The notes beneath the pieces are model-generated. The model was given only the letters and a program-made list of their open reading frames with translations. It did not search any database and was not told where the DNA came from. From a virus (taxonomy: Duplodnaviria > Caudoviricetes), in the IMG/VR virus record IMGVR_UViG_3300018877_000056, positions 1-56,571 of that record: 56,571 nt of DNA. One strand, 5' to 3'. The position numbers and the translations under genes were made by a program. Shown in pieces: positions 8,464 to 44,688 of this stretch. The first letter of the stretch is position 1; the number at the start of each line of letters is the position of its first letter.

Positions 8464-8474
8464 ATGAGATTGCA

Positions 8475-10507: not shown

Positions 10508-10659
10508 CTCTTGCTCAGCCTAACCACAAAGTGATGATTATTGTCTTAGCCTTGGAGCGTTCAGAGTTCCAGCGGGTCGACGTATAGAGCGCGCTCATCA
10601 CGTGTTCGCGCCTGACGCCTAAACCGGCAGCGCCTGATTATCGAGCACGGTCTCCGTTA

Positions 10660-20410: not shown

Positions 20411-21930
20411 CGGTTCCGAGCGGCGAGGGGGCAGGCGGCCCGTTCGTCCTCCGGGAATGGCAGAAACAGTTCATCCGGGACATCTACGAGCCGCACGCTC
20501 TCACCAAGGGGCAGTATCGGCGCCAGGTTAGACGGGCCATCCTCTCGATTGCCCGTAAGAACGGCAAGACGGCTCTGATTGCGGCTCTCGTGCTGGTCCA
20601 TCTGGTCGGGCCGGAAGCCATCCAGAACGGGGAGATCTACTCCGCGGCGAACGACCGGGAGCAGGCAGGACAGGTCTACAAGGTCGCCTCGCAGATCGTG
20701 AAGGCAGACCCGGAGCTTTCAACCATGCTCCGCTGCGTTGACTCAACGAAAACGATTGCCTGCTATAGCAATGGGTCATTCTACAAAGCCATTTCAGCAG
20801 AGGCGGGCACGAAACATGGCCTCAACCCGAGTTTCGTCATCTTTGACGAGCTGGCTCAAGCGAAAGATCGCGAACTTTACGACGTTCTTGATACTTCGAT
20901 GGGTGCTCGTGCGGAGCCGCTCTTTGTAACCATCTCGACGCAGAGCAACGACCCCGAGCACATCCTGTCGAAGCTCATTGACGACGGGCTGGGGGCGAAA
21001 GACCCGACTATCGTCTGCCATCTCTACGCTGTTCCTGAGGAGCAGGAGGACATCTTCGACCCGAAGTGCTGGAAGCTGGCGAACCCGGCTCTAGGCGACT
21101 TCCGCGACTTCGATGACCTGAAGGCTATTGCCGACAAGGCACGGCGAATGCCAGCCGAGGAGCCGAAGTTCCGCAACCTCTACCTCAACCAGCGCGTGGC
21201 GCCGGTCGCATCCCTCATCTCCCGAGCCGAATGGATGGCCTGCAAGGGCGAGGTTGAATTCGAAGATGGCGAGGAAGTCTATCTCGGCTTGGACCTGTCC
21301 TCGATCAACGATCTGACGGCCCTTGTGATGGTCAGCGCGAGCGACCCGAGCCGAGTACAACCCTTTCTCTGGAAGCCGAAAGACTTCCTCAAGGAGCATT
21401 CAAACCGGGACTTTGGCCGAGGCAACCACCGCTTTGTCGAGTGGCACAAGCAGGGGTACCTTCTGGCGACCCCAGGCCGCTCGATCGACAAGGAAGTGAT
21501 CGCCCGCCACATCGCAGACCTTTGCGGCCGCTACCGCGTCCTCGGCATGGCCTATGACCGCTGGCGGATTGACGACTTGATCAAGGAATTCGACCGCATC
21601 GACTTCGCCTCTCATAAAGATGGCGAGAAGGGCGATGGGTTGCGGATCATCCCCTGGGGCCAGGGCTTCAAGGACATGACGCCGGCCATTGACGCGATGG
21701 AACTGGCGGTGATCGACCGGAAGCTGGTCCACGACAACAACCCTGTCCTCAACTGGAACATGGCGAACGCCGTCGCGGTCACGGATCCGGCAGGCGGACG
21801 CAAGATCGACAAGAATAAGGCCCGGTTCCGCATTGACGGCGCGGTGGCGCTCACGATGGCGCTTGGGCTGAAGTCTCGTGACCGCAAGGACGAGCGAAAG
21901 CCCGACTACCAGATGTTCGTGCTGGGCTGA
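20284..21930 (+). CDS. terL: Terminase large subunit
   Basis: Walker A ARKNGKT, IFDE Walker B, GLDLS and RIDGAVA nuclease motifs; start uncertain (20242 or 20284). Confidence 0.95.
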   Translation: MGRPPRAGSKGKGRSATSRKQAKEQVRRPDRAARVIAFIEALTVPSGEGAGGPFVLREWQKQFIRDIYEPHALTKGQYRRQVRRAILSIARKNGKTALIAALVLVHLVGPEAIQNGEIYSAANDREQAGQVYKVASQIVKADPELSTMLRCVDSTKTIACYSNGSFYKAISAEAGTKHGLNPSFVIFDELAQAKDRELYDVLDTSMGARAEPLFVTISTQSNDPEHILSKLIDDGLGAKDPTIVCHLYAVPEEQEDIFDPKCWKLANPALGDFRDFDDLKAIADKARRMPAEEPKFRNLYLNQRVAPVASLISRAEWMACKGEVEFEDGEEVYLGLDLSSINDLTALVMVSASDPSRVQPFLWKPKDFLKEHSNRDFGRGNHRFVEWHKQGYLLATPGRSIDKEVIARHIADLCGRYRVLGMAYDRWRIDDLIKEFDRIDFASHKDGEKGDGLRIIPWGQGFKDMTPAIDAMELAVIDRKLVHDNNPVLNWNMANAVAVTDPAGGRKIDKNKARFRIDGAVALTMALGLKSRDRKDERKPDYQMFVLG

Positions 21931-21943
21931 GAAGGATCACAGA

Positions 21944-23071
21944 ATGAACCGGATGTATTCGGTCCTCCACGTTAAGGCTGTGGAGGAGGAGCAGCGCATT
22001 ATCCGCGGCGTGGCCACGACACCCAATCCCGACCGGGTCGGGGACATCGTGGAGCCCTTGGGCGTCCAGTTCAAGAACCCGATGCCACTGCTGCACCAGC
22101 ACGACCACAATCGTCCTGTCGGCACTGTCACCTTTGACAGACCCACCAAGGACGGCATCACCTTCAAGGCGCGCCTCCCGAAGATCGAGGAACCTGGCCC
22201 ACTGCGTGACCGCGTGGAAACGGCTTGGGGCGAGATCAAGGCCGGTCTGGTCCGTGCCGTCTCCATCGGCTTCCGCGCTCTCGAATACGCCTTCCTGGAT
22301 GAAGGCGGGATCCGCTTCACCAAAAGCGAGGTCCTTGAACTCTCTCTCGTCTCCGTGCCGGCCAATGCCGACGCGGTGATCTCCACCATCAAGTCGATCG
22401 ACGCCCCCTTGCTCGCCGCGACCGGCAAAGAGCCCAAGGCGGATGATCGGCCTGTCCGCCCGGGCGCTGCCGGGAAAACCGTCAAATCCGTCAACTTGCG
22501 CCCGAAGGAGGGCACGAACATGAAGACCATTGCAGAACAGATTGCGGCGCTTGAGGCCTCTCGTCAGGCCAAGTCCGCGCGCATGGCCGAGGTCATGCAG
22601 AAGTCCATCGATGAGGGCCGTTCGACCGATCCGGCCGAGCAGGAGGAGTTCGACACCCTCGAGGGCGAGGTGGTCGCCATCGACGGCGACCTGAAGCGGC
22701 TCCGGGCCCTGGAGAAGGCCCAGGCCGCCTCTGCCAAGCCGGTTTCCGGCCAGAAGTCCGACGAAGGCACGGCTGCCCGCTCCCGCATTCAGGTCCAGCC
22801 CGTCGAGAAACTCGACAAGGGCATCGGCTTCGCCCGCCTGGCCAAGGTCAAGGCGATCGCGAAGCTGGATGGCGAGAGCGTCCGCACCGTGGCGAAGGAA
22901 CTGTATGGCGAGAACTCGTCCATCTACGGCCTGTTCGTCAAGGCCCCGGTCCCGGCCGGCACCACGCAGGACGGCAACTGGGCGGCTCCCCTCGTCGGCG
23001 AAGGCACCGATGTGATCGCCGACTTCGTGGAGTTCCTGCGGCCAAGAACAGACATGCGCCTTGCGGCGTGA
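21944..23071 (+). CDS. Prohead protease-major capsid fusion, 5' part (interrupted by satellite at 23033-23043)
   Basis: HK97 protease motifs LLHQHDH, AVSIGF, ELSLVSVPAN; coiled coil; capsid N-terminus ending DFVEFLRP. Confidence 0.92.
   Translation: MNRMYSVLHVKAVEEEQRIIRGVATTPNPDRVGDIVEPLGVQFKNPMPLLHQHDHNRPVGTVTFDRPTKDGITFKARLPKIEEPGPLRDRVETAWGEIKAGLVRAVSIGFRALEYAFLDEGGIRFTKSEVLELSLVSVPANADAVISTIKSIDAPLLAATGKEPKADDRPVRPGAAGKTVKSVNLRPKEGTNMKTIAEQIAALEASRQAKSARMAEVMQKSIDEGRSTDPAEQEEFDTLEGEVVAIDGDLKRLRALEKAQAASAKPVSGQKSDEGTAARSRIQVQPVEKLDKGIGFARLAKVKAIAKLDGESVRTVAKELYGENSSIYGLFVKAPVPAGTTQDGNWAAPLVGEGTDVIADFVEFLRPRTDMRLAA
23033..23043 (+). repeat. Satellite left att core TTCCTGCGGCC
   Basis: Identical to 33528-33538. 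Confidence 0.9.
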
Positions 23072-23096
23072 AATAAATCTAGAACATCAAAGACTT

Positions 23097-23119
23097 AGCC
23101 GCTCCCGAGCGGCTTTTTT
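23097..23119 (+). terminator. Rho-independent terminator just inside the satellite left end
   Basis: AGCCGCT-CCCG-AGCGGCT-TTTTT. Confidence 0.8.
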
Positions 23120-23153
23120 CATGTCTGCCGCTCGTTACAACGAGCACCAACAG

Positions 23154-23217
23154 AATCAATGACTTAACAAGACGGCCCAACGCAATCCGGCACGTCCACG
23201 CGACAACGACGCAACAA
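23154..23217 (+). promoter_or_regulatory. IHF site and integrase arm-type repeats of the left att arm
   Basis: AATCAATGACTTA fits WATCAANNNNTTR; ACGCGACAA-CG-ACGCAACAA echoes 33473-33492. Confidence 0.6.
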
Positions 23218-23238
23218 CAAACTGAGAAAGCATGCGAC

Positions 23239-23460
23239 ATGGAGAGATACATGGAGACCCCTCTTAACAGCACCGATCTGCTGCATGGGATGGAGGCCAT
23301 CGCGGCCTTCCTCGGCATCAAGAAAAGGCAGGCACAGCACTGGGCTGACACGACCGACATGCCGACATTCAAGATCGGCCGGACCGTGTGCGCTCGCCGG
23401 TCGAGCCTCAAGGAATGGCTTGCCAAGCGTGAACGCGGGGAGGCAGCCAATGACCGATGA
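23239..23460 (+). CDS. Satellite excisionase/AlpA-like HTH protein
   Basis: DLLHGMEAIAAFLG...MPTFKIGRTVCARRSSLKEWL. Confidence 0.8.
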   Translation: MERYMETPLNSTDLLHGMEAIAAFLGIKKRQAQHWADTTDMPTFKIGRTVCARRSSLKEWLAKRERGEAANDR

Positions 23461-23701
23461 CATCCTTGTCGCCACCATTCGCAAGAATTCCCGCGAGGAG
23501 ATCCGGGTCAGCCTGGGGGAGTATCAGGGCCATACCGTCGCGCACGCCCGTGTCTGGTTCAAGGCTGCCGATGGGACGATGCGTCCCTCTAGGTCGGGTC
23601 TCGCCTTCCGGGTGGACCTCCTGCCTGAGATTGCCCGCGCTCTGAGCGAGGCGAACGACCACGCTGAAAGTCTCGGCCTTGTCGCTCCCGCTCCCCGGTA
23701 A
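23450..23701 (+). CDS. PC4/p15-like ssDNA-binding protein
   Basis: RKNSREEIRVSLGEYQG...RVWF...PSRSGLAF. Confidence 0.75.
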   Translation: MTDDILVATIRKNSREEIRVSLGEYQGHTVAHARVWFKAADGTMRPSRSGLAFRVDLLPEIARALSEANDHAESLGLVAPAPR

Positions 23702-23724
23702 GCCAGCGGCACCGGAGGCGCGGA

Positions 23725-24243
23725 ATGAGCGCAAAGAAACGACGCAACAGCATCGGGCAACAATTCATCGCCCATCGCCGCGATATGAGAGAGGCCCCGG
23801 CCTGGAGGCACCTGCCGGACAATGCCCGGCGCATCCTCGACCGGCTGGAGCTCGAACACATGAGGCATGGCAGCGCTGAGAATGGCCGGCTGCCCTGCAC
23901 CTATGCCGACTTCGAAAAGGCAGGCATCCGGCGCAAGTCGATTGCCCTGGCCATCCGGCAGTGTGTGGGTTTGGGCTTCCTTGAAGTCACAAGACAGGGT
24001 CGCCGATCCGTGGCCGAGTTCAGAACGCCCTCTCTCTACAGGCTTACTTATGTGCACGGGACCGGCCGCAGCCAGGCCCCGACCGACGAGTGGCAGAGGA
24101 TCAGCACGGATGAGCATGCGCTTGCTGTGCTGGAGGCTCTAAAGGCTGTACCCTCCCGAGATCTAGAAAGTAGGGGCAATAGCGCCCCTAGGACTGTAGG
24201 GGCGAAAACGACCCCGGCACATGGTCTCCATAAGGGGCGATAG
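23725..24243 (+). CDS. Satellite winged-helix replication initiator (putative)
   Basis: AWRHLPDNARRIL, NGRL, LGFLEVTRQG, PSLYRLTY; iterons at its 3' end. Confidence 0.6.
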   Translation: MSAKKRRNSIGQQFIAHRRDMREAPAWRHLPDNARRILDRLELEHMRHGSAENGRLPCTYADFEKAGIRRKSIALAIRQCVGLGFLEVTRQGRRSVAEFRTPSLYRLTYVHGTGRSQAPTDEWQRISTDEHALAVLEALKAVPSRDLESRGNSAPRTVGAKTTPAHGLHKGR

Positions 24244-24272
24244 CGCCCCCGGATAAGGGGCGAAAACGCCCC
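24172..24272. repeat. Four palindromic iterons AGGGGC(G/A)AWASG(A)CCCC (putative satellite origin)
   Basis: Copies start at 24172, 24198, 24233, 24256; followed by AT-rich TTTTTAATTT. Confidence 0.75.
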
Positions 24273-24300
24273 CGGCTTTTTAATTTCAGCAGGTATCGAG

Positions 24301-24582
24301 ATGACACAGCAACGAGGCTCACGCCGCGAGGGCATCGCGCATGCCAAGCCGACGAGGCAATACGCATGGCAGATGCGAAACCCTGAGAAGCGCCGAGCCC
24401 ATCTTGCGGTTCAGCAGGCGTTGAGACGGGGCCAACTCGTGCGCCAACCATGCGCTGTTTGCGGGACCACTCAGAACGTGGATGCCCATCACGAAGATTA
24501 TCGAGCGGCGCTTGAGGTGAAATGGTTGTGCCGACGCCATCACAAGCAGAGGCACCGACAGATGAGGTGCGAGGGTGGGTGA
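24301..24582 (+). CDS. Satellite HNH-like Zn-binding protein
   Basis: CAVCG...DAHHEDY...WLCRRHH; immediately before the cos-like array. Confidence 0.7.
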   Translation: MTQQRGSRREGIAHAKPTRQYAWQMRNPEKRRAHLAVQQALRRGQLVRQPCAVCGTTQNVDAHHEDYRAALEVKWLCRRHHKQRHRQMRCEGG

Positions 24583-24850
24583 GGGGCGGTGTCTCTCTGC
24601 TCCCACTCCTGAGGTCCCGGACCGGCGCCCTCAGTCAAACGCGAAATGCCGCAAGTTTCCATAGGGGGGAGCCTCCAGGCTCAAAGACCCTTAGGCCGGA
24701 ACCGGTGATCGGCCCAAACTTCTCGTTTTTGCAGATTGATGTACTGCGACGTGAATTCTGCAACGAGGGGGGCACGGTCGAAATCTCGGCCGCCCAATCC
24801 CGGACCGGCGGTCCAAGCTTTCCTTTCCAAAACCTGTAGAAAAAAGATTT
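24583..24850 (+). repeat. Array of three cos-like units
   Basis: G-run followed 37-38 nt later by ACCGG, three times; unit 1 (24619-24658) is 39/40 identical to 19867-19906. Confidence 0.75.
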
Positions 24851-24854
24851 CAGG

Positions 24855-25220
24855 ATGGATGAAACGAACACCCTCCTGCGAGCCTTGATTGCTGAGGTGA
24901 AGGGGCTCCGAGCCGATCTGGCACGGCAGACAGGGGCAGAAGACCCAGCCTCAACCCTCGGGGATCTGGTGGAGGCTATCGCCTTCACCGTAGGGGATCG
25001 CGTGTTTACTGCTCCAGAACTCGCAAAGTTTGCAGAGGCAGCACCTCCCGAAAAGCTGCAGATCGCACTCCATGCAGCGGGCGGCACGAACCCTCGCAAA
25101 GTCGGGAAACTATTGCGCCGCATGGAAAAGCAGGAGTGCGGCGGCTGGCGTGTAGTTCAAATCGGCAGCGACCGCGACGGGCTGCTCTGGAAAGTACAGC
25201 CTGCAAGTTTGGCCCGCTGA
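24855..25220 (+). CDS. Satellite hypothetical protein
   Basis: 121-aa ORF, same strand as satellite operon. Confidence 0.55.
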   Translation: MDETNTLLRALIAEVKGLRADLARQTGAEDPASTLGDLVEAIAFTVGDRVFTAPELAKFAEAAPPEKLQIALHAAGGTNPRKVGKLLRRMEKQECGGWRVVQIGSDRDGLLWKVQPASLAR

Positions 25221-25300
25221 AACTCGCAAACTCGCACAGTCGATTGAGACGGCGAAAGTACACCCTCAATATACCCTCAGAAATCCACGACCAAAGGAAC

Positions 25301-26368
25301 ATGACCTTGGACCGTCTCGCCAGTCTTACCAGCCAATACGAGTCCCATTCGAAGGCGATGGCCTTCATTCAGTTCGCCATTACCAAGGCGATAGCACGAG
25401 ACCAGAGTGTAGACCCGCTGGAATTGTTTCAGGCGCGGTATCCGCATTCCAAGCATCTCGCCGCGATCCAGAAGGCCGCTGTCTCAGCCGGATCGACGGA
25501 CAACTGGGGCGCTCCTCTTGTCCCCCTGCCGGGCTATGCCTCAGAGTTCTTGGAGCTGGTAAGGCCTGCGAGTGTCGTAGGCCGGATGCGCGGTTTCCGC
25601 CGCGTCCCATTCCGGGTGAAGTTCACCAGGCAGACCTCCGGAGCGACGGCGGGCTGGGTTGGCGAGTTCAAGCCCATCCCGGTCGGCAAGCTCGATATGA
25701 GCACGGAGACTTTCGAGCATTCGAAGGTTGCTGGCATCATCGTCATTTCCAAGGAATTGGCCCGCTCCGCCGATCCGGCTGCCGAGCCCCTGATCCAGCG
25801 GGATATCGTGGCGGCCGTCGCCAAGTTCACGGACGAGCAATTCCTTGACCCTGCGGTGGCAGAGACGGGCGTACACCCGGCCTCCGTCACCCACGGTGCA
25901 ACGGAGGTGGTATCCAGCGGCAACGGCGCCGATGCAATTGCCGCCGATCTTAAGGCACTTGTGGCTGCTGTTGTCGGATCAGGTGCGCTGCTCACCGCAC
26001 CGTATTTCGTCATGAAGCCCTCGACGGCTCTTCACCTTGCGACCCTTGAGGGGACGAACGGTAAGGTTTTCCCGAACGTCAATGTCATGGGCGGTGACAT
26101 CTGGGGCATTCCGGTCCTCGTCTCTGGTAATGCGGGCGATCAGATCACGCTAGTTGACGCAGCCGAGCTGATGCTTGCCGACGGCGATGTTCAGTTGGAC
26201 ACGGCCGAGGAAGCAGCCCTCCAAATGGACGATGCGCCAGCCGATGGCGCGGTTCAGTTGGTCAGTCTGTTCCAGACCAACAGCATTGCCATCCGGGCCA
26301 TCCGCACAATCCGGTGGCGCATGCGCAACCCCGGCGCCGTCGCCTACCTCTCTGGCGTGACCTACTGA
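25301..26368 (+). CDS. Satellite HK97-fold major capsid protein
   Basis: Homologous to helper capsid (VPF, WVGE.KP.P, KVA.I.V, SLFQTNS.A.R); AAAGGA RBS before 25301. Confidence 0.92.
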   Translation: MTLDRLASLTSQYESHSKAMAFIQFAITKAIARDQSVDPLELFQARYPHSKHLAAIQKAAVSAGSTDNWGAPLVPLPGYASEFLELVRPASVVGRMRGFRRVPFRVKFTRQTSGATAGWVGEFKPIPVGKLDMSTETFEHSKVAGIIVISKELARSADPAAEPLIQRDIVAAVAKFTDEQFLDPAVAETGVHPASVTHGATEVVSSGNGADAIAADLKALVAAVVGSGALLTAPYFVMKPSTALHLATLEGTNGKVFPNVNVMGGDIWGIPVLVSGNAGDQITLVDAAELMLADGDVQLDTAEEAALQMDDAPADGAVQLVSLFQTNSIAIRAIRTIRWRMRNPGAVAYLSGVTY

Positions 26369-26378
26369 GGGCCCCGCC

Positions 26379-26591
26379 ATGGATGACGAGGCCTGGAACA
26401 AGAAGCTCGTTGAAGCCGCCGATGGCGCGATGGACGGTGGCGGCAAGAGCCTGGGCGAACGCTTCGGCGCGATGCTTGCCGCATGCGTCAGAACCGTTCG
26501 GGACGAGATGCGGGAGAAGCACCGCAAGACAGACGAGCGCCTCACCGCCATCGAGGAGCATCTGACAGCCATACGAGAGGGCAGGGAATGA
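26379..26591 (+). CDS. Small coiled-coil protein
   Basis: GAGG RBS; follows capsid gene. Confidence 0.55.
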   Translation: MDDEAWNKKLVEAADGAMDGGGKSLGERFGAMLAACVRTVRDEMREKHRKTDERLTAIEEHLTAIREGRE

Positions 26592-26815
26592 CCACGTTCA
26601 AGATCAAGTCCTTTGCTGACCTCGAGGCCTGCTTCGATGAGATCGCAGAAGGGAAGCTGCAGGACACGGCACGACTCCTCTCCCGCAAGGGCGCGACTGA
26701 TGAGGAGATCGAGGCCGAGCTAGCCCATCAGCGAGCGGCGATGGCAGCATCCAGGGCTCAGTTCATGGAACAGGCCAAGGGCTTTATCCAGCGCGGTGGA
26801 GAGAGCCTCCAGTGA
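26588..26815 (+). CDS. Hypothetical protein
   Basis: ATGA overlap; MTTFKIKSF... Confidence 0.5.
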   Translation: MTTFKIKSFADLEACFDEIAEGKLQDTARLLSRKGATDEEIEAELAHQRAAMAASRAQFMEQAKGFIQRGGESLQ

Positions 26816-26879
26816 GATTGCTGTGCCCTCCCTTCGCAGCAAGCGGTCGGCTCCTGAAGCGCCAGGGCCGACCGCACCC

Positions 26880-26970
26880 GGGGGGGTATTTGCCAGCTTT
26901 GGAAAGAACGGATCGTGGACCGGCGCCCTCAATCAAACGCGCGATGCCGCAAATTTCAGTAAAAAGTTCC
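26880..26970 (+). repeat. Fourth cos-like unit (helper-type core)
   Basis: G7...GGACCGGCGCCCTCAATCAAACGCGCGATGCCGCAAATTTCAGTAAAAAGTTCC, similar to 19867-19920. Confidence 0.75.
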
Positions 26971-26980
26971 GATCAACCCC

Positions 26981-27229
26981 ATGGATGAAACCCAAACTCG
27001 CCAATGTGGCGCAAGAACCCGCTCAGGAGAGCCGTGCAGGCGATCTCCGGCCCCCGGCAAGCGCAGATGCCGGCTCCATGGTGGCGCTCCTGGCAGCGGG
27101 GCTCCTACAGGCGAGCGCAACGGTGCATGGAAGGGCGGACGATACAGCAGGGCGATCACGCCCGAACAGAGACACCTGGCCTGGAAGGAATATTGGGCCG
27201 AGAAGAGGGCTAAGAGACATGGCAACTGA
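26981..27229 (+). CDS. HGGxSTG-domain protein (TerS-like position)
   Basis: CGARTRSGEPC...RCRLHGG..GSGAP.G.RN..WKGGRYS. Confidence 0.8.
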   Translation: MDETQTRQCGARTRSGEPCRRSPAPGKRRCRLHGGAPGSGAPTGERNGAWKGGRYSRAITPEQRHLAWKEYWAEKRAKRHGN

Positions 27230-27452
27230 AGTGATCGAGGCAGACCCCCACGACGTGGTGGCACAATATGCCCTTGAACGGCTCATGGAGATGGTGAGCG
27301 ACACGCCTATCCCGTCCCGTGCTTTGGCAATCGCCATGATTGCCAACGGTGGCGGCGCTATTGCCGCCCTCGATGGTCGTGAGGCGGCTGCGCAACTCCT
27401 TCGGGACGCTGCAGACCGGATCGAGAACCCCGAACTAGCCGGGAGAGCATGA
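27219..27452 (+). CDS. Hypothetical protein
   Basis: Overlapping start MATEVIEADP. Confidence 0.5.
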   Translation: MATEVIEADPHDVVAQYALERLMEMVSDTPIPSRALAIAMIANGGGAIAALDGREAAAQLLRDAADRIENPELAGRA

Positions 27453-27826
27453 CGATGAGCAGGAAACTCCATTACGTGATGTCAACATTCGGTGGCGAGC
27501 CAGCAATGTTCTGCCTCACCCGCCGCAGGCTCGAAATCTTCGAAGTAGGCCTTGAGGCCGGAAGCGCATTCGAGTTCCTCCGTAGGCTCCTGAACGGCAC
27601 CTGGGCAACGAGGGATCTCGTCAGCCTCCTTCAGGACGCTTACCGCGAACACGACGGGAACGTGAACCTCAAGGCGCATTCCCACGTGCGAGCCGTGATC
27701 GAGAAGAACGGTCCCGGGCACTATGTCGGCTTGGCCGCCAAAATCATCGAAGCCGCTCTCTTCGGAATACCAGAGAAGGATGCAGTCTTTGATGAGGCCA
27801 AGCAGCTCACAGGAGAGGCAGGTTGA
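27449..27826 (+). CDS. Satellite tail assembly chaperone-like protein
   Basis: FLRRLLNGTWATRDL resembles helper 39694 LLHRLMDGSWMVDDA. Confidence 0.6.
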   Translation: MTMSRKLHYVMSTFGGEPAMFCLTRRRLEIFEVGLEAGSAFEFLRRLLNGTWATRDLVSLLQDAYREHDGNVNLKAHSHVRAVIEKNGPGHYVGLAAKIIEAALFGIPEKDAVFDEAKQLTGEAG

Positions 27827-28269
27827 GCCAGGGCCTGAAGCGCTGGGAGCAGAGGCTAAAGAACATACCGAAGACGGTACGGGCGCGAGTGCGTGAAGCC
27901 ATTCACCAGGGAGCGGCTGAAATCGTTTCGGCTCAGAAGCGCTTGGCGCCAGTCAGGACCGGCAAACTGCGAGACAGTATCACGGCCACCATTGGCGGGC
28001 AGGCTCCAAAATACTCCCAGTTCGGCCGCATGGGCGGCAAGGGTGACGCCGATCTCACAGCAGTCATCACGGTCGGCAACTCCGAGGTTCGATATGCGCA
28101 CCTCGTGGAGTTCGGTTCCGCTCCGCATATCGCAGGCGGTAGGTTCAAGGGGGCGGACCATCCCGGCACGACCGCACAGCCCTTTTTCTATCCCGGCTAT
28201 CGCATGGTGCGGCGACGGGTGAAGAGCCGCATTACCCGCGCCGTCAACAAGGGCATCAAGGAGGCCTGA
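27823..28269 (+). CDS. Satellite HK97 gp10-like neck/tail protein
   Basis: QKRLAPVRTGKLRDSI, YAHLVEFG, HPGTTAQPFFYPG; paralogue of 38291-38797. Confidence 0.88.
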   Translation: MSQGLKRWEQRLKNIPKTVRARVREAIHQGAAEIVSAQKRLAPVRTGKLRDSITATIGGQAPKYSQFGRMGGKGDADLTAVITVGNSEVRYAHLVEFGSAPHIAGGRFKGADHPGTTAQPFFYPGYRMVRRRVKSRITRAVNKGIKEA

Positions 28270-28272
28270 GCC

Positions 28273-30300
28273 ATGGCAGTTGAACGCGATGCAATGATCG
28301 TCTCGGTTGAGGCGCGCATCAACAATATCGAGCGTCAAATGGCGAAGGCCTCAGCCACATCGCGGAAGCATTTCACGCGGATCGAGTCCGATGCAAAGAC
28401 CATGGCGAGCCGGGTAAATGCCACTATGGGCAAAGTCGGGGAGGGGCTGAAAACAGCCTTCGTAGGGTTCGCCGGTGGTCTTGTTGGGGGGCTTGCTGCC
28501 GGAGGTGTTCTAGGAGTCCTCGGAAGCGTCCAGGGAGCCATGTCTGAATTGGCGAACGTGGCGGCTGAGGCCAAGCGGGCGGGTCTAGGCGGAGAAGCCT
28601 TCCAGGAATTGAGTTATGCCGCCATGCAGAGCCGGGTGAGCATTGACGCTCTGACGGACGGCCTCAAGGAGATGCAGCTCCGGGCGGATGAATTCATCGT
28701 CACGGGCAAGGGCAGCGGCGAGGAAGCCTTTAAGCGCCTCGGCTACTCGGCAACCGAACTGAATGAGAAGCTGAAGGACCCGCCAAAGCTGTTCGAAGAG
28801 ATCATCGACAAGCTAGGGCAACTCGATAAGTCGTCACAGATCCGCATTGCCGATGAGATCTTCGGCGGTGAGGGTGGCGAGCAGTTTGTGCGCTTTCTGG
28901 ACAAGGGGGCGGGTGCAATCGCCCGGGCGCGCCAGGAGGCAAGGGACACCGGCAATGTCCTTAGTGAGGATATGCTGAAGAAGGCCGTCGAGATCGATCA
29001 GCAGTTCGAGACCATAGCCCGCACCATCGGAACCAATGTCAAGGGCGCAATTGTCAGCGTGGTGTCCGCTCTAAAGGAGTTCGTGGGCGAGGCGAGCATG
29101 CTCAACAGCAGGAGCATTGAGGCAGTCTCCGACAGGATCAGCAAGATCAAGACAGAAATGGAAAGCCTGCAGAAGATCGAGGCTGATGCACGGCGAATGT
29201 TCCCGAACGCTCTCGAAAGCGCCTTCGCAGGCAATGCAGACAAACTGAAAGCCTACCGCGACGAGCTGGGCAAGCTCGAGGAACACCTGGGGCGACTCAA
29301 GACGAGCGCCCCGACCTCTCCGGGAGAGGCCCCGCCGACAACGCCGGCAGGCGGCAAGGGAGATCTGAGCCAAATCGACGTTGCCGGTAGCAAAAAGAAG
29401 GCACTGGAGGGCTATGCCGCGCTCGAACAAGCGGCCCTAGCTCGCATCAATACTCTGCGGGTGGAGCAGCAGGCTCTCGGCCTCACGACGGGAGAGGCTG
29501 AAAAGCTCCGGTTTGAGCAACAACTCCTGGCTGAAGCAACGCGAGACGGGACGATACTTACCCAGACACAAAAGGATCGTATCTCGGAGCTCGCGGGGCA
29601 GTACGGAGCACTTACGGCAGCAATTGAGCAAACTGAGAAGGCACAGCAGGAAGCTAATCAGGCTGCGGAATATTTCGGGGATGTGGCCGTTGATGCTATA
29701 TCCGATCTGGCCTTAGAGGGGCGCAATCTCGATGACGTGCTGCAGAACATCGCGAAGAGCCTCGCCCAGGCAGCAATTCAAGCCGCCATCCTCGGCCAAG
29801 GGCCTCTTGCCGGTCTCCTCGGGACGAGTGGCGTGAATGGTGCGCCTGGGGGCATCATTGGCGCATTGCTAAAATCATTCTCTCCGGTCAAAGCGGCTAC
29901 AGGCGGTTACATTAGAGGGAGAGGCACAGGAACGAGCGACAGCATTCCGGCCCGTCTCAGCAATGGCGAATATGTCGTGAATGCCAGAGCGACAGCTGCC
30001 AATCGAAAGCTGCTGGACGCAATCAACTATGGGCGTGTGCCGCGCTTCGCTGAGGGGGGATTTGTGGGCGTGCCGACCGTGCCGACACCTATTGCGCGCG
30101 GAAGTGGCGGCGGGATGAAAACAGAGGTCCACATCCACGAAGCCCAGGGAGTGAAGACCACCGTTAAAGAGACGCGTGGACCTAGTGGTGTGCGGTTCGA
30201 TGTGTATGCCCGTCAACTCGTTGAGGGCATGGTGGCAGACGGTAGCCTAGATCGGGTTGCAAAAGGCCGCTGGGGGGTGAATCCCATGCGGGGACGTTAG
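28273..30300 (+). CDS. Satellite tape measure protein
   Basis: 675 aa helical; ATGGYIRG.GT.TSDSIPARLSNGEYV; C-terminus matches helper TMP. Confidence 0.88.
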   Translation: MAVERDAMIVSVEARINNIERQMAKASATSRKHFTRIESDAKTMASRVNATMGKVGEGLKTAFVGFAGGLVGGLAAGGVLGVLGSVQGAMSELANVAAEAKRAGLGGEAFQELSYAAMQSRVSIDALTDGLKEMQLRADEFIVTGKGSGEEAFKRLGYSATELNEKLKDPPKLFEEIIDKLGQLDKSSQIRIADEIFGGEGGEQFVRFLDKGAGAIARARQEARDTGNVLSEDMLKKAVEIDQQFETIARTIGTNVKGAIVSVVSALKEFVGEASMLNSRSIEAVSDRISKIKTEMESLQKIEADARRMFPNALESAFAGNADKLKAYRDELGKLEEHLGRLKTSAPTSPGEAPPTTPAGGKGDLSQIDVAGSKKKALEGYAALEQAALARINTLRVEQQALGLTTGEAEKLRFEQQLLAEATRDGTILTQTQKDRISELAGQYGALTAAIEQTEKAQQEANQAAEYFGDVAVDAISDLALEGRNLDDVLQNIAKSLAQAAIQAAILGQGPLAGLLGTSGVNGAPGGIIGALLKSFSPVKAATGGYIRGRGTGTSDSIPARLSNGEYVVNARATAANRKLLDAINYGRVPRFAEGGFVGVPTVPTPIARGSGGGMKTEVHIHEAQGVKTTVKETRGPSGVRFDVYARQLVEGMVADGSLDRVAKGRWGVNPMRGR

Positions 30301-30304
30301 GACC

Positions 30305-30619
30305 TTACCGTGTTGTCTCTGGCGTCCCGGCGAGATCATCCAGAAACGAGCTATAGGGGAGACGTGCCAGGATAGTGCCCCTTGATGCCACCATCGCCGC
30401 AGTTGTGCCGCGGCAAAGCAGAGTCACATTGCCGGTGGTTCGCTTGCAGAAGGCGTCAGGGCTGTCGATGAAGTTCAAGCCAGACGGCCCCATAACAATG
30501 GCGGTTACGCCGTCCGGGATTGCACCGATCGGTTTGATGACGAACACCCGTAGCCCCGCAAGGTAGGCAATGAAAACTAGGGCGGCCAACCCGAACGAAA
30601 CTAGGAATAAAGCTCTCAT
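30305..30619 (-). CDS. Membrane-anchored cargo protein
   Basis: N-terminal hydrophobic helix; FVIKPIGAIPDG; two Cys. Confidence 0.55.
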   Translation of the reverse strand: MRALFLVSFGLAALVFIAYLAGLRVFVIKPIGAIPDGVTAIVMGPSGLNFIDSPDAFCKRTTGNVTLLCRGTTAAMVASRGTILARLPYSSFLDDLAGTPETTR

Positions 30620-30668
30620 CAACTCACGATGGCACAGGCTGGGCGCAGTTCGCAAGGCTAGTAAATTC

Positions 30669-31262
30669 TTAAGCGGCCCACCAAGATAGCAAAGCGAGAG
30701 CGCCCCTGACGCCCCAGTAAACCAGCGTAAACACCCCAACCAGCATACTCAATCCGATAATGATATTGATCGAGCGCGGGAAGATGCGATTGGGGGCAAC
30801 ACGAATATGCTTGCCCTGTGCTCCATCGAAACGAACGTTTACCAAGTGGGGCATATCATTGTTCAGATGGAGCAAATAGAGATTGAAGCTTTCTTTTGGG
30901 TTTAACCGTTCGACCTCAATAATTAATCGCTCATCAGGATTGTCTCTGATGACAAAGGGGAGTGGAGGAGAGAGCTCCAAATGGTAGGGCCGGAAGTTGA
31001 ATATAATCTCTACATTATTGGCTGTTTGCCTACCTGCGTTGGTAAAAAAGAGCGTTTGTGTTCTAACGGGAGAGTATTTTCCTTCTCCGTCTTTGGGTAG
31101 GAGGTATGCCGACTGTAATTCTGAGTAATGTAGTTTGGGTTTGGCCGCAAAGAACCCAAGGATCAGCGATCCTAAGCCCGTCAAAAGTGTCGTAATGATA
31201 CCAGCTGTTATTTCTTTATTATTATTTGCGAACTCTAATACTGCGGCAAACATTGCTTCCAC
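30669..31262 (-). CDS. Two-TM cargo protein, AT-rich
   Basis: Terminal hydrophobic helices, NAGRQTANNV beta-domain. Confidence 0.65.
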   Translation of the reverse strand: MEAMFAAVLEFANNNKEITAGIITTLLTGLGSLILGFFAAKPKLHYSELQSAYLLPKDGEGKYSPVRTQTLFFTNAGRQTANNVEIIFNFRPYHLELSPPLPFVIRDNPDERLIIEVERLNPKESFNLYLLHLNNDMPHLVNVRFDGAQGKHIRVAPNRIFPRSINIIIGLSMLVGVFTLVYWGVRGALALLSWWAA

Positions 31263-31526
31263 GAAGTCCAGCTAAGCTACTTTAAGCAATGAGTGGACTT
31301 GATCGTAGCTGAAGAGTCAATGCTGTTGGGACGTGTCAGCGCGCGCGAAAACCCCTTCCGCCTTGCCGGGCGGTGGGTTCGCGTGTCATATTTGTAATTG
31401 GAGCGTAGCAACTCCCGAAGCGGGCCCTTGCCGGGGCTGGCGCTTCAGTCACAGAGCGGTGGCGATCCCTTGCCGGGGATAGGCCATCGAAAGCAAACGC
31501 GCTTCACCTAGTGAAGCGTGACCGGC

Positions 31527-31626
31527 TCACTATGCCGGGAGTCCATCCGTTATACAAGACCCTTTCGAGGGGAAGACGGTTGGGCGTGCTCTCTGTGGCG
31601 CGTTGCTACCCTCCCGGTGCCAGTGA
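31527..31626 (+). ncRNA. c4/CI-type antisense immunity RNA (putative)
   Basis: Closing stem TCACTATGCCGGGAG/CTCCCGGTGCCAGTGA; carries CTCTGTG and GTTGCTAC complementary to flanking CACAGAG and GTAGCAA targets on both sides. Confidence 0.65.
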
Positions 31627-31707
31627 CGACCGCTGGCAACTGGAGACAAACCCGTAGCAAGGCGAGTCTCCCCGGCCGTAGCAAGCCGGTTCTCCACAGA
31701 GTAACCC

Positions 31708-32154
31708 ATGACTTCACAATTCTACGCCCGCAGTGGGCCAATAGCGTCTCCGGCTATCGATCCGGAGCGCACGCGTCTCCGCGCCTTGAGAGCTGAGATT
31801 GAGCGAGAGTTAGAGCGGATGATTGATCTGCTCGACGCCATCGACGGCGACCCGGACTTTGAACCTTCCTTTGGCTCGGTTGCCCCGGGACACGTTGACG
31901 AGGCTGAACCCGACGCAGACCTTGAACCTTCCCTCGGCTGGACGAGCACCTATGCCCATGGCTCCGATCAGGACCTTGAGGAGGAGCATGACGGTCGGGA
32001 GCCCGATGAGGATTTCGAGGGCAACACCGATGACAACGGCATAGGCGACCGTGGCGGGCTTGATGAGCAGTACGGCATTGATGCGACTGTGACCCGCTTC
32101 CCGCTCTACGGAACGATTGACGGCACCGCTCACATCATCCCTGAAACGTACTGA
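31708..32154 (+). CDS. Acidic D-x-D-x-EPS repeat protein
   Basis: IDLLDAIDGDPDFEPS, DADLEPSLG, DQDLEEEHDGREPD. Confidence 0.7.
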   Translation: MTSQFYARSGPIASPAIDPERTRLRALRAEIERELERMIDLLDAIDGDPDFEPSFGSVAPGHVDEAEPDADLEPSLGWTSTYAHGSDQDLEEEHDGREPDEDFEGNTDDNGIGDRGGLDEQYGIDATVTRFPLYGTIDGTAHIIPETY

Positions 32155-32161
32155 TCCAAAC

Positions 32162-32194
32162 GGCCCGGCTGCATTCCGTGGCCGGGCCTCTTTT
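32162..32194 (+). terminator. Rho-independent terminator before satellite integrase
   Basis: GGCCCGGC...GCCGGGCC-TCTTTT. Confidence 0.6.
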
Positions 32195-32211
32195 CATGAA
32201 AGGAGAGCAAC

Positions 32212-33519
32212 GTGGCAAGCGTGAACAAAAGAGAGTGGACCTATAAGGGCGAGACAAAAACCGCCTGGGTGGTTCGGTATACGGACCAAGGCGGCAAGCG
32301 TCGAATGAAGACTTTCGAGAAGAAGAAGGAGGCGGATGCTTTCCGGGTTCAAGTAGAAAGCGAGATCACGCAGGGAGTGCATACCGCCTACAACGAGAGC
32401 GTGACCTTCGACAAGGCGGTCGATGAGTTTATAAAGGACTGCTATCGGCGGGAGAAGCTAGGGGACATAACGCTAAGTGGCGTGAAGGGCTACGAGTATC
32501 GGCTTGAACATTACACAGTCCCCAAGTTCGCTAAGCGTCGTGTCTCCACGATCACGGCGGCAGAAATCCAAACCTATGTAGAGGAACTGCGCGAGAAGCT
32601 GTCCCCCCATACCATCCATGGGATCTATGGCTCGCTGCATGTGCTGCTGACCTTTGCCGTGTCCAAGAAGTGGGTTCGCCGGAATGTGCTGCGAGACGAG
32701 CCCTGCAAGCTGCCGACCAAGCCGAAGCGCAAGTCGATCCCGACCAAGGACGACATAAGGGCGCTCCTAGAGGCTGCTTCTCGCCTCGACAAGGGAGAGA
32801 ACCTCCTGACGTTCGTAAACCGCTCTGTGGTCATTGCCTGCGGCGTCTTCTGCGGTTTCCGTCCAGGGGAGACCTTTGGCCTGCATTGGGAGGACATCGA
32901 CTGGGAAAGGGGAGTGATCCATGTTCGCCGTGCGCACTCGAAGGTGAACGGGCTGAAAACGCCCAAGACCGAGGCGGGCTTCCGTGACGTGCCGCTCACC
33001 GAGCCTGTGCGCCGTGCTCTCTATCAGGCCGCGCGCTATTGGATCATCAGGAGGATGGCGACGGAGACAGGCGGAAGACGAGGCTCTATGAACCCGAAGG
33101 CTATTTTCAGCCGCATCGCCCGCATGTGGGAAACAGAGGTGGTTCACGTCGATCCGACGCAACTTAAGGGCTTCGTGATCCTGACGAAGGTGGGCAAACC
33201 CATGTCGGCAACAGCCAGCGCGACGACGTTCTGGAAGCGCCTTATGGATGCGGCCGGACTGTACGATCACGAGGCCAAGAGAAACAAGTTCACGCCTCAC
33301 GCCCTGCGGCATGTGGCAGCCAGTCTGCTAATCGAAGCGGGGCTCGATGACATGAACCTAAAGCGCTTCATCGGGCATGCCTCGATCCAGACAACCAAGG
33401 ACATCTACGGTCATCTTTTCCCGACCGATCAGCGCATGGTTGCGACAACAGAGGCCGTTGCGGCGAGCCTAGACGCGACAAGAACGCGACAAATCGCTGT
33501 AAGGCATTCATTCAACTAA
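32212..33519 (+). CDS. int: Satellite tyrosine integrase
   Basis: GFRPGE, PKT, PHALRH, GHASIQTTKDIYGH; ends 8 nt before att core; GAAAGGAG RBS. Confidence 0.95.
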   Translation: MASVNKREWTYKGETKTAWVVRYTDQGGKRRMKTFEKKKEADAFRVQVESEITQGVHTAYNESVTFDKAVDEFIKDCYRREKLGDITLSGVKGYEYRLEHYTVPKFAKRRVSTITAAEIQTYVEELREKLSPHTIHGIYGSLHVLLTFAVSKKWVRRNVLRDEPCKLPTKPKRKSIPTKDDIRALLEAASRLDKGENLLTFVNRSVVIACGVFCGFRPGETFGLHWEDIDWERGVIHVRRAHSKVNGLKTPKTEAGFRDVPLTEPVRRALYQAARYWIIRRMATETGGRRGSMNPKAIFSRIARMWETEVVHVDPTQLKGFVILTKVGKPMSATASATTFWKRLMDAAGLYDHEAKRNKFTPHALRHVAASLLIEAGLDDMNLKRFIGHASIQTTKDIYGHLFPTDQRMVATTEAVAASLDATRTRQIAVRHSFN

Positions 33520-33527
33520 CAAAAATA

Positions 33528-33538
33528 TTCCTGCGGCC
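33528..33538 (+). repeat. Satellite right att core TTCCTGCGGCC
   Basis: Identical to 23033-23043. Confidence 0.9.
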
Positions 33539-34409
33539 CCGCACCATCCTCGGCCGGTTCGGCCAGAACGGCATCCCGTCCCTCCGGAACGTGCCCTTCA
33601 ATGTGCCGCTGGTCGGCCAGACCGAAGGCGGCGAGGGCTACTGGGTGGGTGAAGGCAAGGCGAAGCCGCTGACCCGGTTCGGCTATGAGCGCAACATCCT
33701 TGAGATCTTCAAGGTGGCGAACATTGCTGTGGTCACGGAAGAGCTTCTGCGTCGGTCCAACCCGGCCGCCGAGGCGCTGCTCCGCGACAACCTGGCTGCG
33801 GCAATCGCTGCGCGCCTCGACATCGACTTCATCAACCCGGCCAAGGCTCTGGTCGCCGGCGTCTCGCCTGCCTCGATCACCAACGGCTTGACCCCGGTCA
33901 CGTCGTCCGGTGGCGATGCCGACGCGATCCGCGCCGACATCCGCGCCCTGATGGCGACCTTCATCGCGGCGAACAACGCCCCGACGAACGGCGTCTGGAT
34001 CATGGGCTCGGCGACTGCTCTCGCTCTGTCGATGATGGTCAACCCGCTCGGCCAGGCCGAATTCCCGGGCATCACGATGAATGGCGGCACCTTCGCAGGC
34101 CTGCCGGTGATCGTGTCCGACTACATCCCCGCGGGGACGGTCGTCCTGGCCAACGCCAGCGACATCTATCTGGCCGACGAAGGCGGCGTTCAGGTGGATA
34201 TGTCCCGCGAGGCCTCGCTGGAGATGGCGGACAACCCGGCGCATGACTCAAGCACACCGACCGGCGCCACGTCGCTCGTGTCGATGTTCCAGACCAACTC
34301 GGTAGCGTTCCGCGTCGAGCGGTTCATCAACTGGGCTCGTCGCCGTCCGTCGGCTGTCGCGATCCTGACCGGCGCGACCTGGGGCGCTCCTGCTGCCGAG
34401 ACTCCCTAA
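33528..34409 (+). CDS. Major capsid protein, 3' part (functional only after satellite excision)
   Basis: Frame reads FLRPRTILGRFGQNGIPSLRNVPFNVPL...SMFQTNSVAFRVERFINW and joins 21944-23043 in frame. Confidence 0.92.
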   Translation, partial: FLRPRTILGRFGQNGIPSLRNVPFNVPLVGQTEGGEGYWVGEGKAKPLTRFGYERNILEIFKVANIAVVTEELLRRSNPAAEALLRDNLAAAIAARLDIDFINPAKALVAGVSPASITNGLTPVTSSGGDADAIRADIRALMATFIAANNAPTNGVWIMGSATALALSMMVNPLGQAEFPGITMNGGTFAGLPVIVSDYIPAGTVVLANASDIYLADEGGVQVDMSREASLEMADNPAHDSSTPTGATSLVSMFQTNSVAFRVERFINWARRRPSAVAILTGATWGAPAAETP

Positions 34410-38152: not shown

Positions 38153-38451
38153 TGCCCCGCGTCTCCTTTACCCGCGACTTCGATTTCCAGGCAGCCCCTG
38201 GCGTGGTTCTCGCCAACAAGGCTGGTCAGAAAAACGTGCTGATCACAACGGCCCACGCGAAAGCGGCCGTCGACGCAGGAGCGGCAACCTATGACGAAGG
38301 TTCGGAACCGCGAGAGAGCGCTCAAGCGGCTGTCGGCAATCCAGGGGGCACCACGACAGGCAATCCGCGACGCACTAAAACAAGGCGCCGAGGAAGTGAC
38401 GGCAATGCAGAAGCGCCTCGCTCCGCACAAAAACGGGGATCTGCAGAATAG
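38152..38451 (+). CDS. Small virion-associated hypothetical protein
   Basis: GGAGGAG RBS; RVSFTRDFDF...AVDAGAA; 3' end overlaps next gene. Confidence 0.5.
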   Translation: MPRVSFTRDFDFQAAPGVVLANKAGQKNVLITTAHAKAAVDAGAATYDEGSEPRESAQAAVGNPGGTTTGNPRRTKTRRRGSDGNAEAPRSAQKRGSAE

Positions 38452-38797
38452 CATTGGCTACACGTTCGGCTCTTACCGCCCGGAGAACTCCAACGTTCGA
38501 GGGATGACGGCAAGTAGCGGCGGCGGGGATCCTGATCTGACCGTGACCATCCACGCAGGCGATGCCAAGGCGTTCTATGCGGCCTTCGTGGAGTTTGGCA
38601 CTTCAGCCCACGAGATTAAGCCGAAACGTCCTGGTGGGCTGTTGAACGTTTATGGGCGCTTGCTCACCACCGTGAGCCATCCCGGTGCAACTCCACAACC
38701 CTTCTTTTTCCCAGGCTGGCGGGCGACTCGCAAGCGCGTGAAGTCCCGTATCAGCCGAGCGACCACGAAATCGGTTAGGAAAGCAGCCGGTCGATGA
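38291..38797 (+). CDS. HK97 gp10-like protein
   Basis: YAAFVEFGT, HPGATPQPFFFP. Confidence 0.88.
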   Translation: MTKVRNRERALKRLSAIQGAPRQAIRDALKQGAEEVTAMQKRLAPHKNGDLQNSIGYTFGSYRPENSNVRGMTASSGGGDPDLTVTIHAGDAKAFYAAFVEFGTSAHEIKPKRPGGLLNVYGRLLTTVSHPGATPQPFFFPGWRATRKRVKSRISRATTKSVRKAAGR

Positions 38798-39232: not shown

Positions 39233-39694
39233 ATGGCTGCTCCCACTACGCTCCGCTTTGGCGCGGGCGCTTTCTACATTGGCGACGGGGCAACCCCGAC
39301 CGAAGTCTTTGCGAAGGTCTGCGGCTTCACTGAGATGGAGCTCACCATCGACAAGGAAACGAACGATACCACGGTGCCGGATTGTGACGATCCCGACGCG
39401 GCCGCTTGGACCGAGCGCGATGTCGTGGCGTTGGCCTGGTCGATGACCTTCTCTGGCGTGCTCGCCAAGGAGGCTCTGCCGCTGCTTGAGGATGCCACGT
39501 TCTCGTCGGCCCCGACGAACGTCCGTCTCGATCTGGCCGGCGCAGGCGAAGGATCGGGCACGCCGAATAAGCGCTATGCTGGCCGGGCGCATATCAATCA
39601 CTCCATCACCGGCGCCCGTGGCGAGAAGTGGCAGGTGAGTGTCACTGTGACAGGTGACGGCGAGCTCGTCCGCTCCGACGTTGCGGCCGCCTAA
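39233..39694 (+). CDS. Tail tube protein
   Basis: IGDGATPTEVFAKVCG, VPDCDDPD. Confidence 0.85.
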   Translation: MAAPTTLRFGAGAFYIGDGATPTEVFAKVCGFTEMELTIDKETNDTTVPDCDDPDAAAWTERDVVALAWSMTFSGVLAKEALPLLEDATFSSAPTNVRLDLAGAGEGSGTPNKRYAGRAHINHSITGARGEKWQVSVTVTGDGELVRSDVAAA

Positions 39695-40095
39695 TGTCGC
39701 GGGACGCTTCTATCTCCTTCGATTGGGCGGATGGGCACCACACCTTCCGCCTAGCCATCGGCCAGTTGCGTGAGCTGCAGGAAAAGACCGGCGTCGGTCC
39801 CCTGCGGCTCCTGCATCGGCTCATGGACGGTTCATGGATGGTCGATGATGCCCGCGAAGTCATGCGCCTTGGCCTGATTGGCGGCGGCATGGAGCCCGCG
39901 CAGGCTTTGCGCCTGGTCCAGCGCTATGTCGACGCTCGCCCTCTGATGGAGGCTCAGGCACCGGCCATGCTGGTGCTGGGCGCTGCGCTCCACGGAACCG
40001 ACCAGGAGGGCCAGCCGGGAAAAGGGGAAGCGCCCGACGCGGCGACGAGCGCACCCTCATCCAGTTCGCCGCCCTCTACGGAACAGGAGCCGTAA
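39694..40095 (+). CDS. Tail assembly chaperone G
   Basis: WADGHHTFRLAIGQLRELQEKTG...RLGLIGGG; follows tube gene. Confidence 0.82.
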   Translation: MSRDASISFDWADGHHTFRLAIGQLRELQEKTGVGPLRLLHRLMDGSWMVDDAREVMRLGLIGGGMEPAQALRLVQRYVDARPLMEAQAPAMLVLGAALHGTDQEGQPGKGEAPDAATSAPSSSSPPSTEQEP

Positions 40096-43029: not shown

Positions 43030-43085
43030 TGCATAGGCCTTTCCCTCGGAACGCAAAGCATAAATAAATCTGGAATGGATACAAC

Positions 43086-43991: not shown

Positions 43992-44063
43992 TGAAGCCCC
44001 TGATGTTCCTGTTTGGCCTTGGCGTCCTTGCTGGGCTTCTCGATTGGTTGCTGCAAATTTCCT

Positions 44064-44685: not shown

Positions 44686-44688
44686 TCC

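Follow-up and report, generated by a model that had tools for sequence, protein, structure and literature searches.

In the 56,571-nucleotide stretch of viral DNA analysed here (the window; Duplodnaviria, Caudoviricetes, IMG/VR record IMGVR_UViG_3300018877_000056, positions 1 to 56,571), an HK97-like siphovirus prophage carries a 10,506-bp satellite inside its own protease-capsid fusion gene. Between positions 27,449 and 30,300 the satellite encodes a tail assembly chaperone (TAC), a tail completion protein of the HK97 gp10 family (TCP) and a tape measure protein (TMP), and no tube or tip protein. In its sequence the TMP is a mosaic, with N-terminal two-thirds foreign to the helper prophage, a helper-like glycine-rich motif, a helper-type stretch of about 55 residues at the end, and the length of the helper protein to within 5 residues. 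At a probability of roughly 0.6, the trio is read as a working tail-interior module with which the satellite would replace the interior of the tail (TMP, TCP and TAC) and use the tube and tip of its helper.

The element occupies positions 23,033-33,538 (plus strand) and is bounded by an 11-bp direct repeat, TTCCTGCGGCC, with the left copy of the attachment (att) core at 23,033-23,043 and the right copy at 33,528-33,538. The insertion splits the helper fusion gene into 21,878-23,071 and 33,591-34,409, the first part ending at a stop at 23,071 and the capsid part resuming from 33,591; when the satellite flanks are joined, the capsid reading frame is restored in-frame. A tyrosine integrase is encoded at 32,212-33,519 (plus strand; Pfam Phage_integrase, E 5.7e-23). 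Together, the repeat, the restored gene and the integrase confirm that the element is a satellite, as had been claimed in an earlier note made from the sequence alone. In the assembly of the only run found to contain the element, probably its source, a separate contig covers exactly 23,033-33,538 (10,506 bp) at a depth of 21.4, compared to 17.7 and 16.2 for the flanks, and a 49-nt contig of depth 8.4, about half that of the flanks, links the right end (33,509-33,527) to the left end (23,033-23,062). The small contig is a strong hint, not proof, of a circular or tandem satellite junction; its 30 + 19 letters stay under the 31-letter bridging rule. The depth excess and the junction contig suggest that excised, replicating or tandem copies were present in the sequenced material. 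A contig of the vacated site did not turn up, which carries no weight because contigs lose rare forms, and the listing of runs with this DNA named no RNA run. The element is thus discrete, integrative and apparently active, and resides within its helper's capsid gene.

All three genes of the trio lie on the plus strand, in the direction of the helper late genes. The TAC gene (27,449-27,826; 125 residues) matches Pfam Phage_TAC_11 (E 9.3e-9) and phrog_8985 (E 4.6e-5), and the TCP gene (27,823-28,269; 148 residues, TTG start) matches Pfam HK97-gp10_like (PF04883, E 8.9e-14) and phrog_5, annotated 'tail completion or Neck1' (E 1.1e-25). The TMP gene (28,273-30,300; 675 residues) matches phrog_10574, 'tail length tape measure protein', over residues 4-630 (E 2.4e-119), and Pfam PhageMin_Tail (PF10145) at E 4.9e-8 with 33.5 bits, barely over the cut-off of 33.2. 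The open reading frames (ORFs) are intact and tightly coupled: the TAC start overlaps the upstream ORF (ATGA), the TCP start overlaps the TAC stop (TTGA), and an AAGGAGG precedes the TMP ATG. The satellite TCP gene is placed between the TAC and TMP genes and lacks terminator and tube neighbours; the helper copy stands in the usual order. Among the 14 satellite ORFs scanned with Pfam and PHROGs, no terminase, portal, protease, tube, terminator, tip, fibre or lysis family was found. The earlier note had placed a tape measure, a chaperone and a gp10 protein in 27,449-30,300 of a satellite devoid of tube and tip genes, and on both counts it was right, the ORFs being as described and the two family collections agreeing.

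TACs act as chaperones for TMPs. In the neck of 80alpha/SaPI1, the TCP (the equivalent of HK97 gp10) occupies the tail lumen, with the end of the DNA on one side and, on the other, the N-termini of three TMP copies, with which it is paired (PMC11661146). This pairing and the chaperone role therefore define the trio as a tail interior plus its chaperone. In SPP1, gp16.1 is described as required both to join the head and to route DNA into the cell (PMC11099176), and at the opposite end of the tail, the C-terminal helix of the lambda TMP sits on the gpI tripod in the tip lumen (PMC10721106).

The satellite and helper TMPs measure 675 and 670 residues, as the earlier note had it, when the helper protein is counted from the ATG at 40,706. 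The longest helper ORF opens with a TTG at 40,658 and gives 686 residues; the ATG start is supported because an alignment with a related protein, P0123, runs end to end. By BLASTP the two TMPs align over the C-terminal half only (115 of 368 positions identical, 31%; E 5e-37), and both the shared glycine-rich motif and the shared C-termini described in the note fall inside this alignment. Its further statement that the central domains differ was correct as to the difference but not as to the place, since the difference lies in the N-terminal two-thirds (PF10145 in the satellite, PF20155 in the helper); residues 1-69 still share 30% identity. When the satellite TMP is taken segment by segment, with ranks given among the 120 relatives listed of the satellite TMP plus the helper TMP, the helper comes 121st of 121 for residues 1-300, 115th of 119 for 301-480, 3rd of 99 for 481-545 and 104th of 108 for 546-620, and is the best non-self match for residues 621-675. 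The glycine-rich hydrophobic motif common to both proteins covers residues 496-530 (29,758-29,862, plus strand), within a region (483-544) that is 56% identical to the helper. At about 1.5 Å of tail length per TMP residue, a difference of 5 residues stays within one tube ring. Of the other two proteins, the gp10-like TCPs of satellite and helper are identical at 64 of 158 positions (41%, E 4e-37), and the TACs share a Pfam family and are barely alignable.

The last part of the satellite TMP, from about residue 612 to 675 (30,106-30,297, plus strand), forms a C-terminal cassette of helper type and is the putative tip-docking end. The final 30 residues of the satellite protein agree with the helper protein at 19 positions, and with its own closest relative, P0002, at 11 of 29. 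P0002 also has 675 residues and is 81% identical overall, with one internal single-residue indel; this identity divides into 530 of 621 positions (85%) up to residue 620 and 15 of 55 (27%) beyond it. Such a sharp breakpoint at residue 620 indicates exchange of the C-terminal cassette. P0002 has the same signature (Logan source, 2 contigs, the longest of 6,446 bp) as P0132, an 80% homolog of the acidic 148-residue protein whose gene (31,708-32,154) adjoins the satellite integrase.

The shared end is scarce elsewhere. When the last 60 residues were compared by phmmer with 1.84 billion representatives, 8 other clusters came up at E<=0.001. In 6 of these the match forms the very C-terminal end of a longer protein; of the remaining two, one is a 59-residue fragment and one has an internal match. 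P0123, one of the 8, is of helper type throughout (46% identity to the helper TMP end to end), and the others have different bodies. A profile of the C-terminal end, run over all loci collected, 48 of them with related TMPs (some of these one record present in two collections), scored strongly on the two TMPs of the window only and weakly on two further loci. The C-terminal half of the helper TMP has 70 matches in 55 other genomes of the family, and just 3 of them extend to its last residues. From the ranks, the phmmer clusters, the profile and this limited reach, it follows that the end of the satellite TMP is rare and is shared with its own helper; as a sequence match, it is not due to chance, and compatibility of this end with the helper tip is plausible. 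Ordinary family-wide conservation of the C-terminus was considered and is ruled out by the same four results. In addition, related integrases target two other helpers, whose TMPs have unrelated C-ends, and a homolog search with residues 616-675 recovered the query alone among 12 candidates.

Co-variation of the C-terminal end with the tip genes was followed in 12 TMP loci drawn from the 70 helper matches. A single locus, L109, has a strong score (47.5 bits) and also the closest tip proteins (49% for the gpI-like part, 54% for the J-like protein). This case is confounded and was not counted, because the whole prophage is a closer relative of the helper (44% over the N-terminal part of the TMP). 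In the two weakly scoring loci among these 12, L110 and L111, helper-like tip genes were not seen. Complex prediction with three copies of the last 60 residues of the satellite TMP and three of the first 200 residues of the helper J-like protein gave a median of 0.00, which is no evidence either way.

A route to a working particle can be envisaged from these features. After induction, the satellite TMP would be kept soluble by its own TAC, and its C-terminal cassette would dock in the helper tip complex. The helper tube would then polymerise around it to normal length, and on the head side the satellite TCP would cap the N-termini of the foreign TMP. The outcome would be a chimeric tail with the helper on the outside, hence with the helper host range, and the satellite on the inside. 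Both ends of the TMP would be provided for, by the satellite's own TCP on the foreign N-terminal side and by the helper-type cassette on the tip side. Candidate benefits are escape from blocks directed at the helper TMP, such as entry exclusion or tail-assembly inhibitors, or private tails for satellite heads.

A precedent comes from the PLE satellites of Vibrio cholerae (Nature 2026), which are reported to encode a TMP, a TAC and a hub protein; their virions contain the PLE TMP with the phage TMP excluded, and deletion of tmp lowers transduction by 96-99.9% (PMC12987554). The earlier note had proposed that the satellite TMP is swapped into helper tails with length and tip end kept. Its premises have stood, namely the satellite status, the trio without tube or tip genes, the helper-type end and the near-equal length, and together with the PLE precedent they make the swap itself probable by sequence and by analogy.

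Related elements provide a further view of the module. Three different helpers have protease-capsid fusion genes targeted by related integrases (67-90% identity), and each satellite comes with its own capsid gene. In one sister satellite (G291/L069; G291:C5, L038-L040), the integrase is 89-90% identical and the site lies at the Phe-Leu-Arg-Pro codons of its helper's capsid gene. In another (L071/G402; L071/L076/L077), which spans 15.7 kb, the integrase is 67% identical and the same Phe-Leu-Arg-Pro codons are used. These capsid-gene satellites are an alphaproteobacterial counterpart of the enterobacterial helper-embedded phage-inducible chromosomal islands (PICIs). In place of the TMP module, the L071 satellite carries DUF2793, AbiJ-N-terminal-domain and DUF4238 proteins (53-1433, 3757-6186 and 7578-8603), of which DUF2793 is a family known from phage fibre-like proteins. 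Other tail-related or defence cargo may be carried in the variable slot.

The window is almost an entire contig of a 4.2-Mb genome, and a second contig of that genome, G000:C82 (L041; 10,434 bp), is probably circular because its termini overlap exactly over 141 bp. C82 carries the satellite capsid module, comprising homologs of the ORFs at 24,855 and 26,483 and a capsid protein with 67% identity to that of the satellite, the same value as for the G291 copy. It also encodes an AAA_25 protein (RepA-like; family scan) and proteins labelled from sequence reading as ParA-like, LuxR-like and GNAT-like, and may be a satellite in plasmid form. A 450-bp stretch of the window (26,764-27,210), upstream of the TAC gene, has 81% DNA identity to C82 (L041 1778-2220). 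Its protein frames differ from those of C82 and the G291 satellite is without it; rather than encoding a protein, it may serve as a cis-acting site. A different location is used in an IMG/VR provirus (L070, about 1460-11290), where an element of about 9.8 kb interrupts the large-terminase gene of a helper at the Walker A codons. Overall, its integrase shares 34% identity with that of the satellite, with a nearly identical N-terminus, and its capsid gene is followed directly by a TMP gene of about 590 residues; a TAC and a TCP were not detected in this element.

Several observations weigh against a tail-interior role of the trio. TAC, TCP and TMP are all absent from the G291/L069 and L071 satellites and from the 10.4-kb C82, and DNA matching the G291 satellite is missing across window positions 26,724-31,341. 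This makes the trio optional cargo of a variable slot, dispensable for the family and not its core strategy. The helper TAC, TCP and TMP are intact, hence there is nothing for the satellite to complement. Taken by itself, the length match is weak and at most suggestive because 8 of 118 relatives fall within 5 residues of 670 (25 of 118 within 27). Over the last 55 residues the satellite and helper TMPs are identical at 25, and another relative, P0121, is slightly closer at 29 of 55. Finally, P0002 probably sits in a sister satellite, a placement drawn from the agreement of its contig figures with those of P0132.

The trio could instead be a captured passenger, left from recombination with another phage's late region and serving no transfer role or merely a redundant back-up. 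This is unlikely; in its favour are the absence from two same-site sisters and C82 and the unmatched variable slot. Capture of late genes, possibly dispensable and later lost, is moreover described for enterobacterial helper-embedded PICIs (PMC10111431). The nearest relatives of the module point the same way, being genes for TMP and gp10, at 32-47% identity, from ordinary Xanthobacter, Martelella, Cohaesibacter and Hoeflea prophages; some of these prophages have helper-like tip genes right after the TMP gene, and none of the loci is a satellite. Yet the trio takes up about 2.9 kb of a 10.5-kb element with all three frames open and coupled, and the sister TMP retains 85% identity and its length over 620 residues. 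The retention of TAC, TCP and TMP only, without tube or terminator, together with a helper-type C-terminal end, would also be unexpected for a random fragment.

Satellites often interfere with helper morphogenesis, and the satellite TMP might dock on helper tips to spoil or divert helper tails rather than to serve the satellite's own infectivity. Indeed, tail assembly is reported as a target of satellite and prophage systems such as Tai (PMC11364771) and Rta of PLE11 (PMC12987554), and a helper-type C-terminal end would permit competition for helper tips. Such a device is nonetheless quite improbable: the satellite itself needs tails, a length-matched TMP accompanied by its own TAC and TCP looks made for complete tails, and no inhibitor-like family was detected with PHROGs or PADLOC. 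It is very improbable that the element is simply a decayed second prophage lying by chance within the first. The phage-type capsid, HNH, TAC, TCP and TMP genes would fit such a remnant, but not the precise 11-bp repeat and the in-frame restoration of the target, nor the recurrence of this integrase type at matching codons in two further helpers, nor the circular or tandem junction in the reads, nor a size of 10.5 kb in which genes for terminase, portal, protease, tube, tip and lysis are all lacking.

Within the favoured reading of a tail-interior module, one possible use of the foreign TMP body has been considered separately. The satellite settles only in helper-carrying cells, because its attachment site exists only inside the helper capsid gene, and bypass of superinfection exclusion is therefore logically attractive. 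In lambda and Bas14, TMP regions of the N-terminal or middle part are reported to govern the entry route and sensitivity to defence (SNIPE, PMC13190303), and HK97 gp15 is an exclusion moron encoded between the TAC and TMP genes (PMC3594210). At the gp15 position, the helper of the window has a membrane-protein ORF (40,263-40,676, minus strand) with a hydrophobic N-terminus, which lends positional support to the idea. Unlike gp15 of HK97 (PMC3594210), this ORF lies on the opposite strand and has no detected relative: it has no Pfam, PADLOC or PHROG match, and a search of 400 other genomes of the family gave no homolog. The full proposal, in which the foreign TMP body and the satellite's own TCP act as an anti-exclusion device for entering helper lysogens with a TMP-directed block (40,263-40,676 being the candidate), and the C-terminal cassette retunes docking upon a change of helper, is distinctly unlikely as it stands.

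Besides the trio and the integrase, the satellite encodes a major capsid protein without a protease domain (25,301-26,368, plus strand; Pfam Phage_capsid E 6.7e-15, phrog_617 E 1.4e-58), a PC4-like protein, an HNH endonuclease and several ORFs of no assigned family. Two overlapping membrane-protein ORFs with hydrophobic segments (30,305-31,262, minus strand) lie in the same variable cargo slot as the trio; they match phrog_37309, of unknown function, and gave no PADLOC hit and no function from PHROGs. Pfam and PHROG scans of the 14 satellite ORFs gave neither an AlpA-type regulator nor a primase or replicase, the PC4-like protein and the unassigned ORFs being all that is left. A scan of the satellite for promoters and terminators found a number of sites not above that in shuffled sequence.

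The helper late region runs from small and large terminase through the protease/capsid fusion, portal, gp6-type connector and head completion protein to the tail genes, in the order gp10-type, gp17 tail completion, tube, TAC, TMP, DUF1833 and J-like. Its gp10-family tail completion gene is intact (38,291-38,797, plus strand), as is its TAC gene (39,694-40,095, plus strand; Pfam Phage_TAC_11, E 7e-24). The tail tube gene (39,233-39,694, plus strand; Pfam Phage_tail_2, E 1.3e-12) has no satellite counterpart. The helper TMP gene (40,706-42,718, plus strand; 670 residues) matches Pfam TMP_3 (PF20155, E 2.6e-48) and phrog_17300 (E 7.6e-95) and has a minus-strand ORF on either side (40,263-40,676 and 42,715-43,056). 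The tip genes follow at 43,086-48,036 (plus strand) and encode a 122-residue virion protein, a DUF1833 minor tail protein, an NlpC/P60-like protein and a 1115-residue J-like protein; the labels NlpC/P60-like, J-like and lambda gpI-like (for the J-like N-terminus) come from sequence reading or homolog naming and not from a family scan. In several Xanthobacter-type prophages (L006, L007, L008, L012, L013, L015, L043 and L044), a large-terminase-like gene lies directly upstream of the TMP gene, with gp10 and gp17 homologs further upstream, an unusual late-gene order.

Satellite TMPs are already in print for PLEs and EPIPs, as are helper-embedded satellites for enterobacteria. The PLEs resemble the satellite described here in having their own TMP and TAC, no tube or fibre genes, a TMP of low identity to that of the helper and a proposed mixed tail (PMC12987554). 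This likeness is one of description, and the PLEs differ in several respects. Their helper is a lytic myovirus and their third protein a baseplate hub protein, as opposed to a temperate HK97-like siphovirus and a tail completion protein; the satellite of the window, unlike a PLE, lies inside its helper. The PLE11 TMP is 95 residues off that of its helper and gives tails about 10 nm shorter, whereas the TMP of the window is length-matched and ends in a helper-type cassette (PMC12987554). The EPIP satellites of Mycolicibacterium (bioRxiv, December 2025) likewise have capsid and TMP genes, with the TMP proposed for tail hijacking, but their integrase is of the serine type and they carry small terminase, adaptor and stopper genes, and the satellite of the window has no terminase or connector genes. 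EPIP tails are reported as longer and more variable than those of the helper, in contrast to the matching TMP lengths found here (PMC12822802).

With the helper-embedded PICIs (NAR Genom Bioinform 2023), the shared features are a position within a helper late gene and a short att identity block (PMC10111431). Those islands are enterobacterial and follow an int-alpA-primase-late layout; the satellite of the window has no AlpA or primase Pfam match and has its integrase at the downstream end, and the term 'tape measure' is absent from the main text of that paper (PMC10111431). The host of the window is an alphaproteobacterium, a protein of a sister genome being named Microvirga lupini by NCBI. 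The cf-PICIs also have their own capsid protein and depend on helper tails, but none of their core genes (both terminase subunits, portal, head-tail adaptor and connector) was found in the satellite of the window (PMC10085698). According to a figure legend, some cf-PICIs have putative tmp genes, as do PLE-like elements (Extended Data Fig. 10, PMC12987554). A keyword-based, non-exhaustive search of the open-access literature returned no satellite with a TCP, none with a length-matched mosaic TMP ending in an exchangeable helper-type segment, and no alphaproteobacterial case.

That satellite-encoded TMPs can function was first shown in a single Vibrio system (2025-2026), where their fit into helper tails is not explained. 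The element described here is a natural dissection of that fit, with a foreign TMP body joined to a helper-type end, a sister in which only that end is exchanged, and a TCP of its own. By the 80alpha structure, this TCP would contact the other end of the TMP. Taken together, these features suggest testable rules for the portions of a TMP that have to fit the helper. Elements of this kind would escape current satellite finders, which count tail genes among forbidden components (PMC10085698). The satellite of the window would also extend helper-embedded, tail-remodelling satellites to soil alphaproteobacteria.

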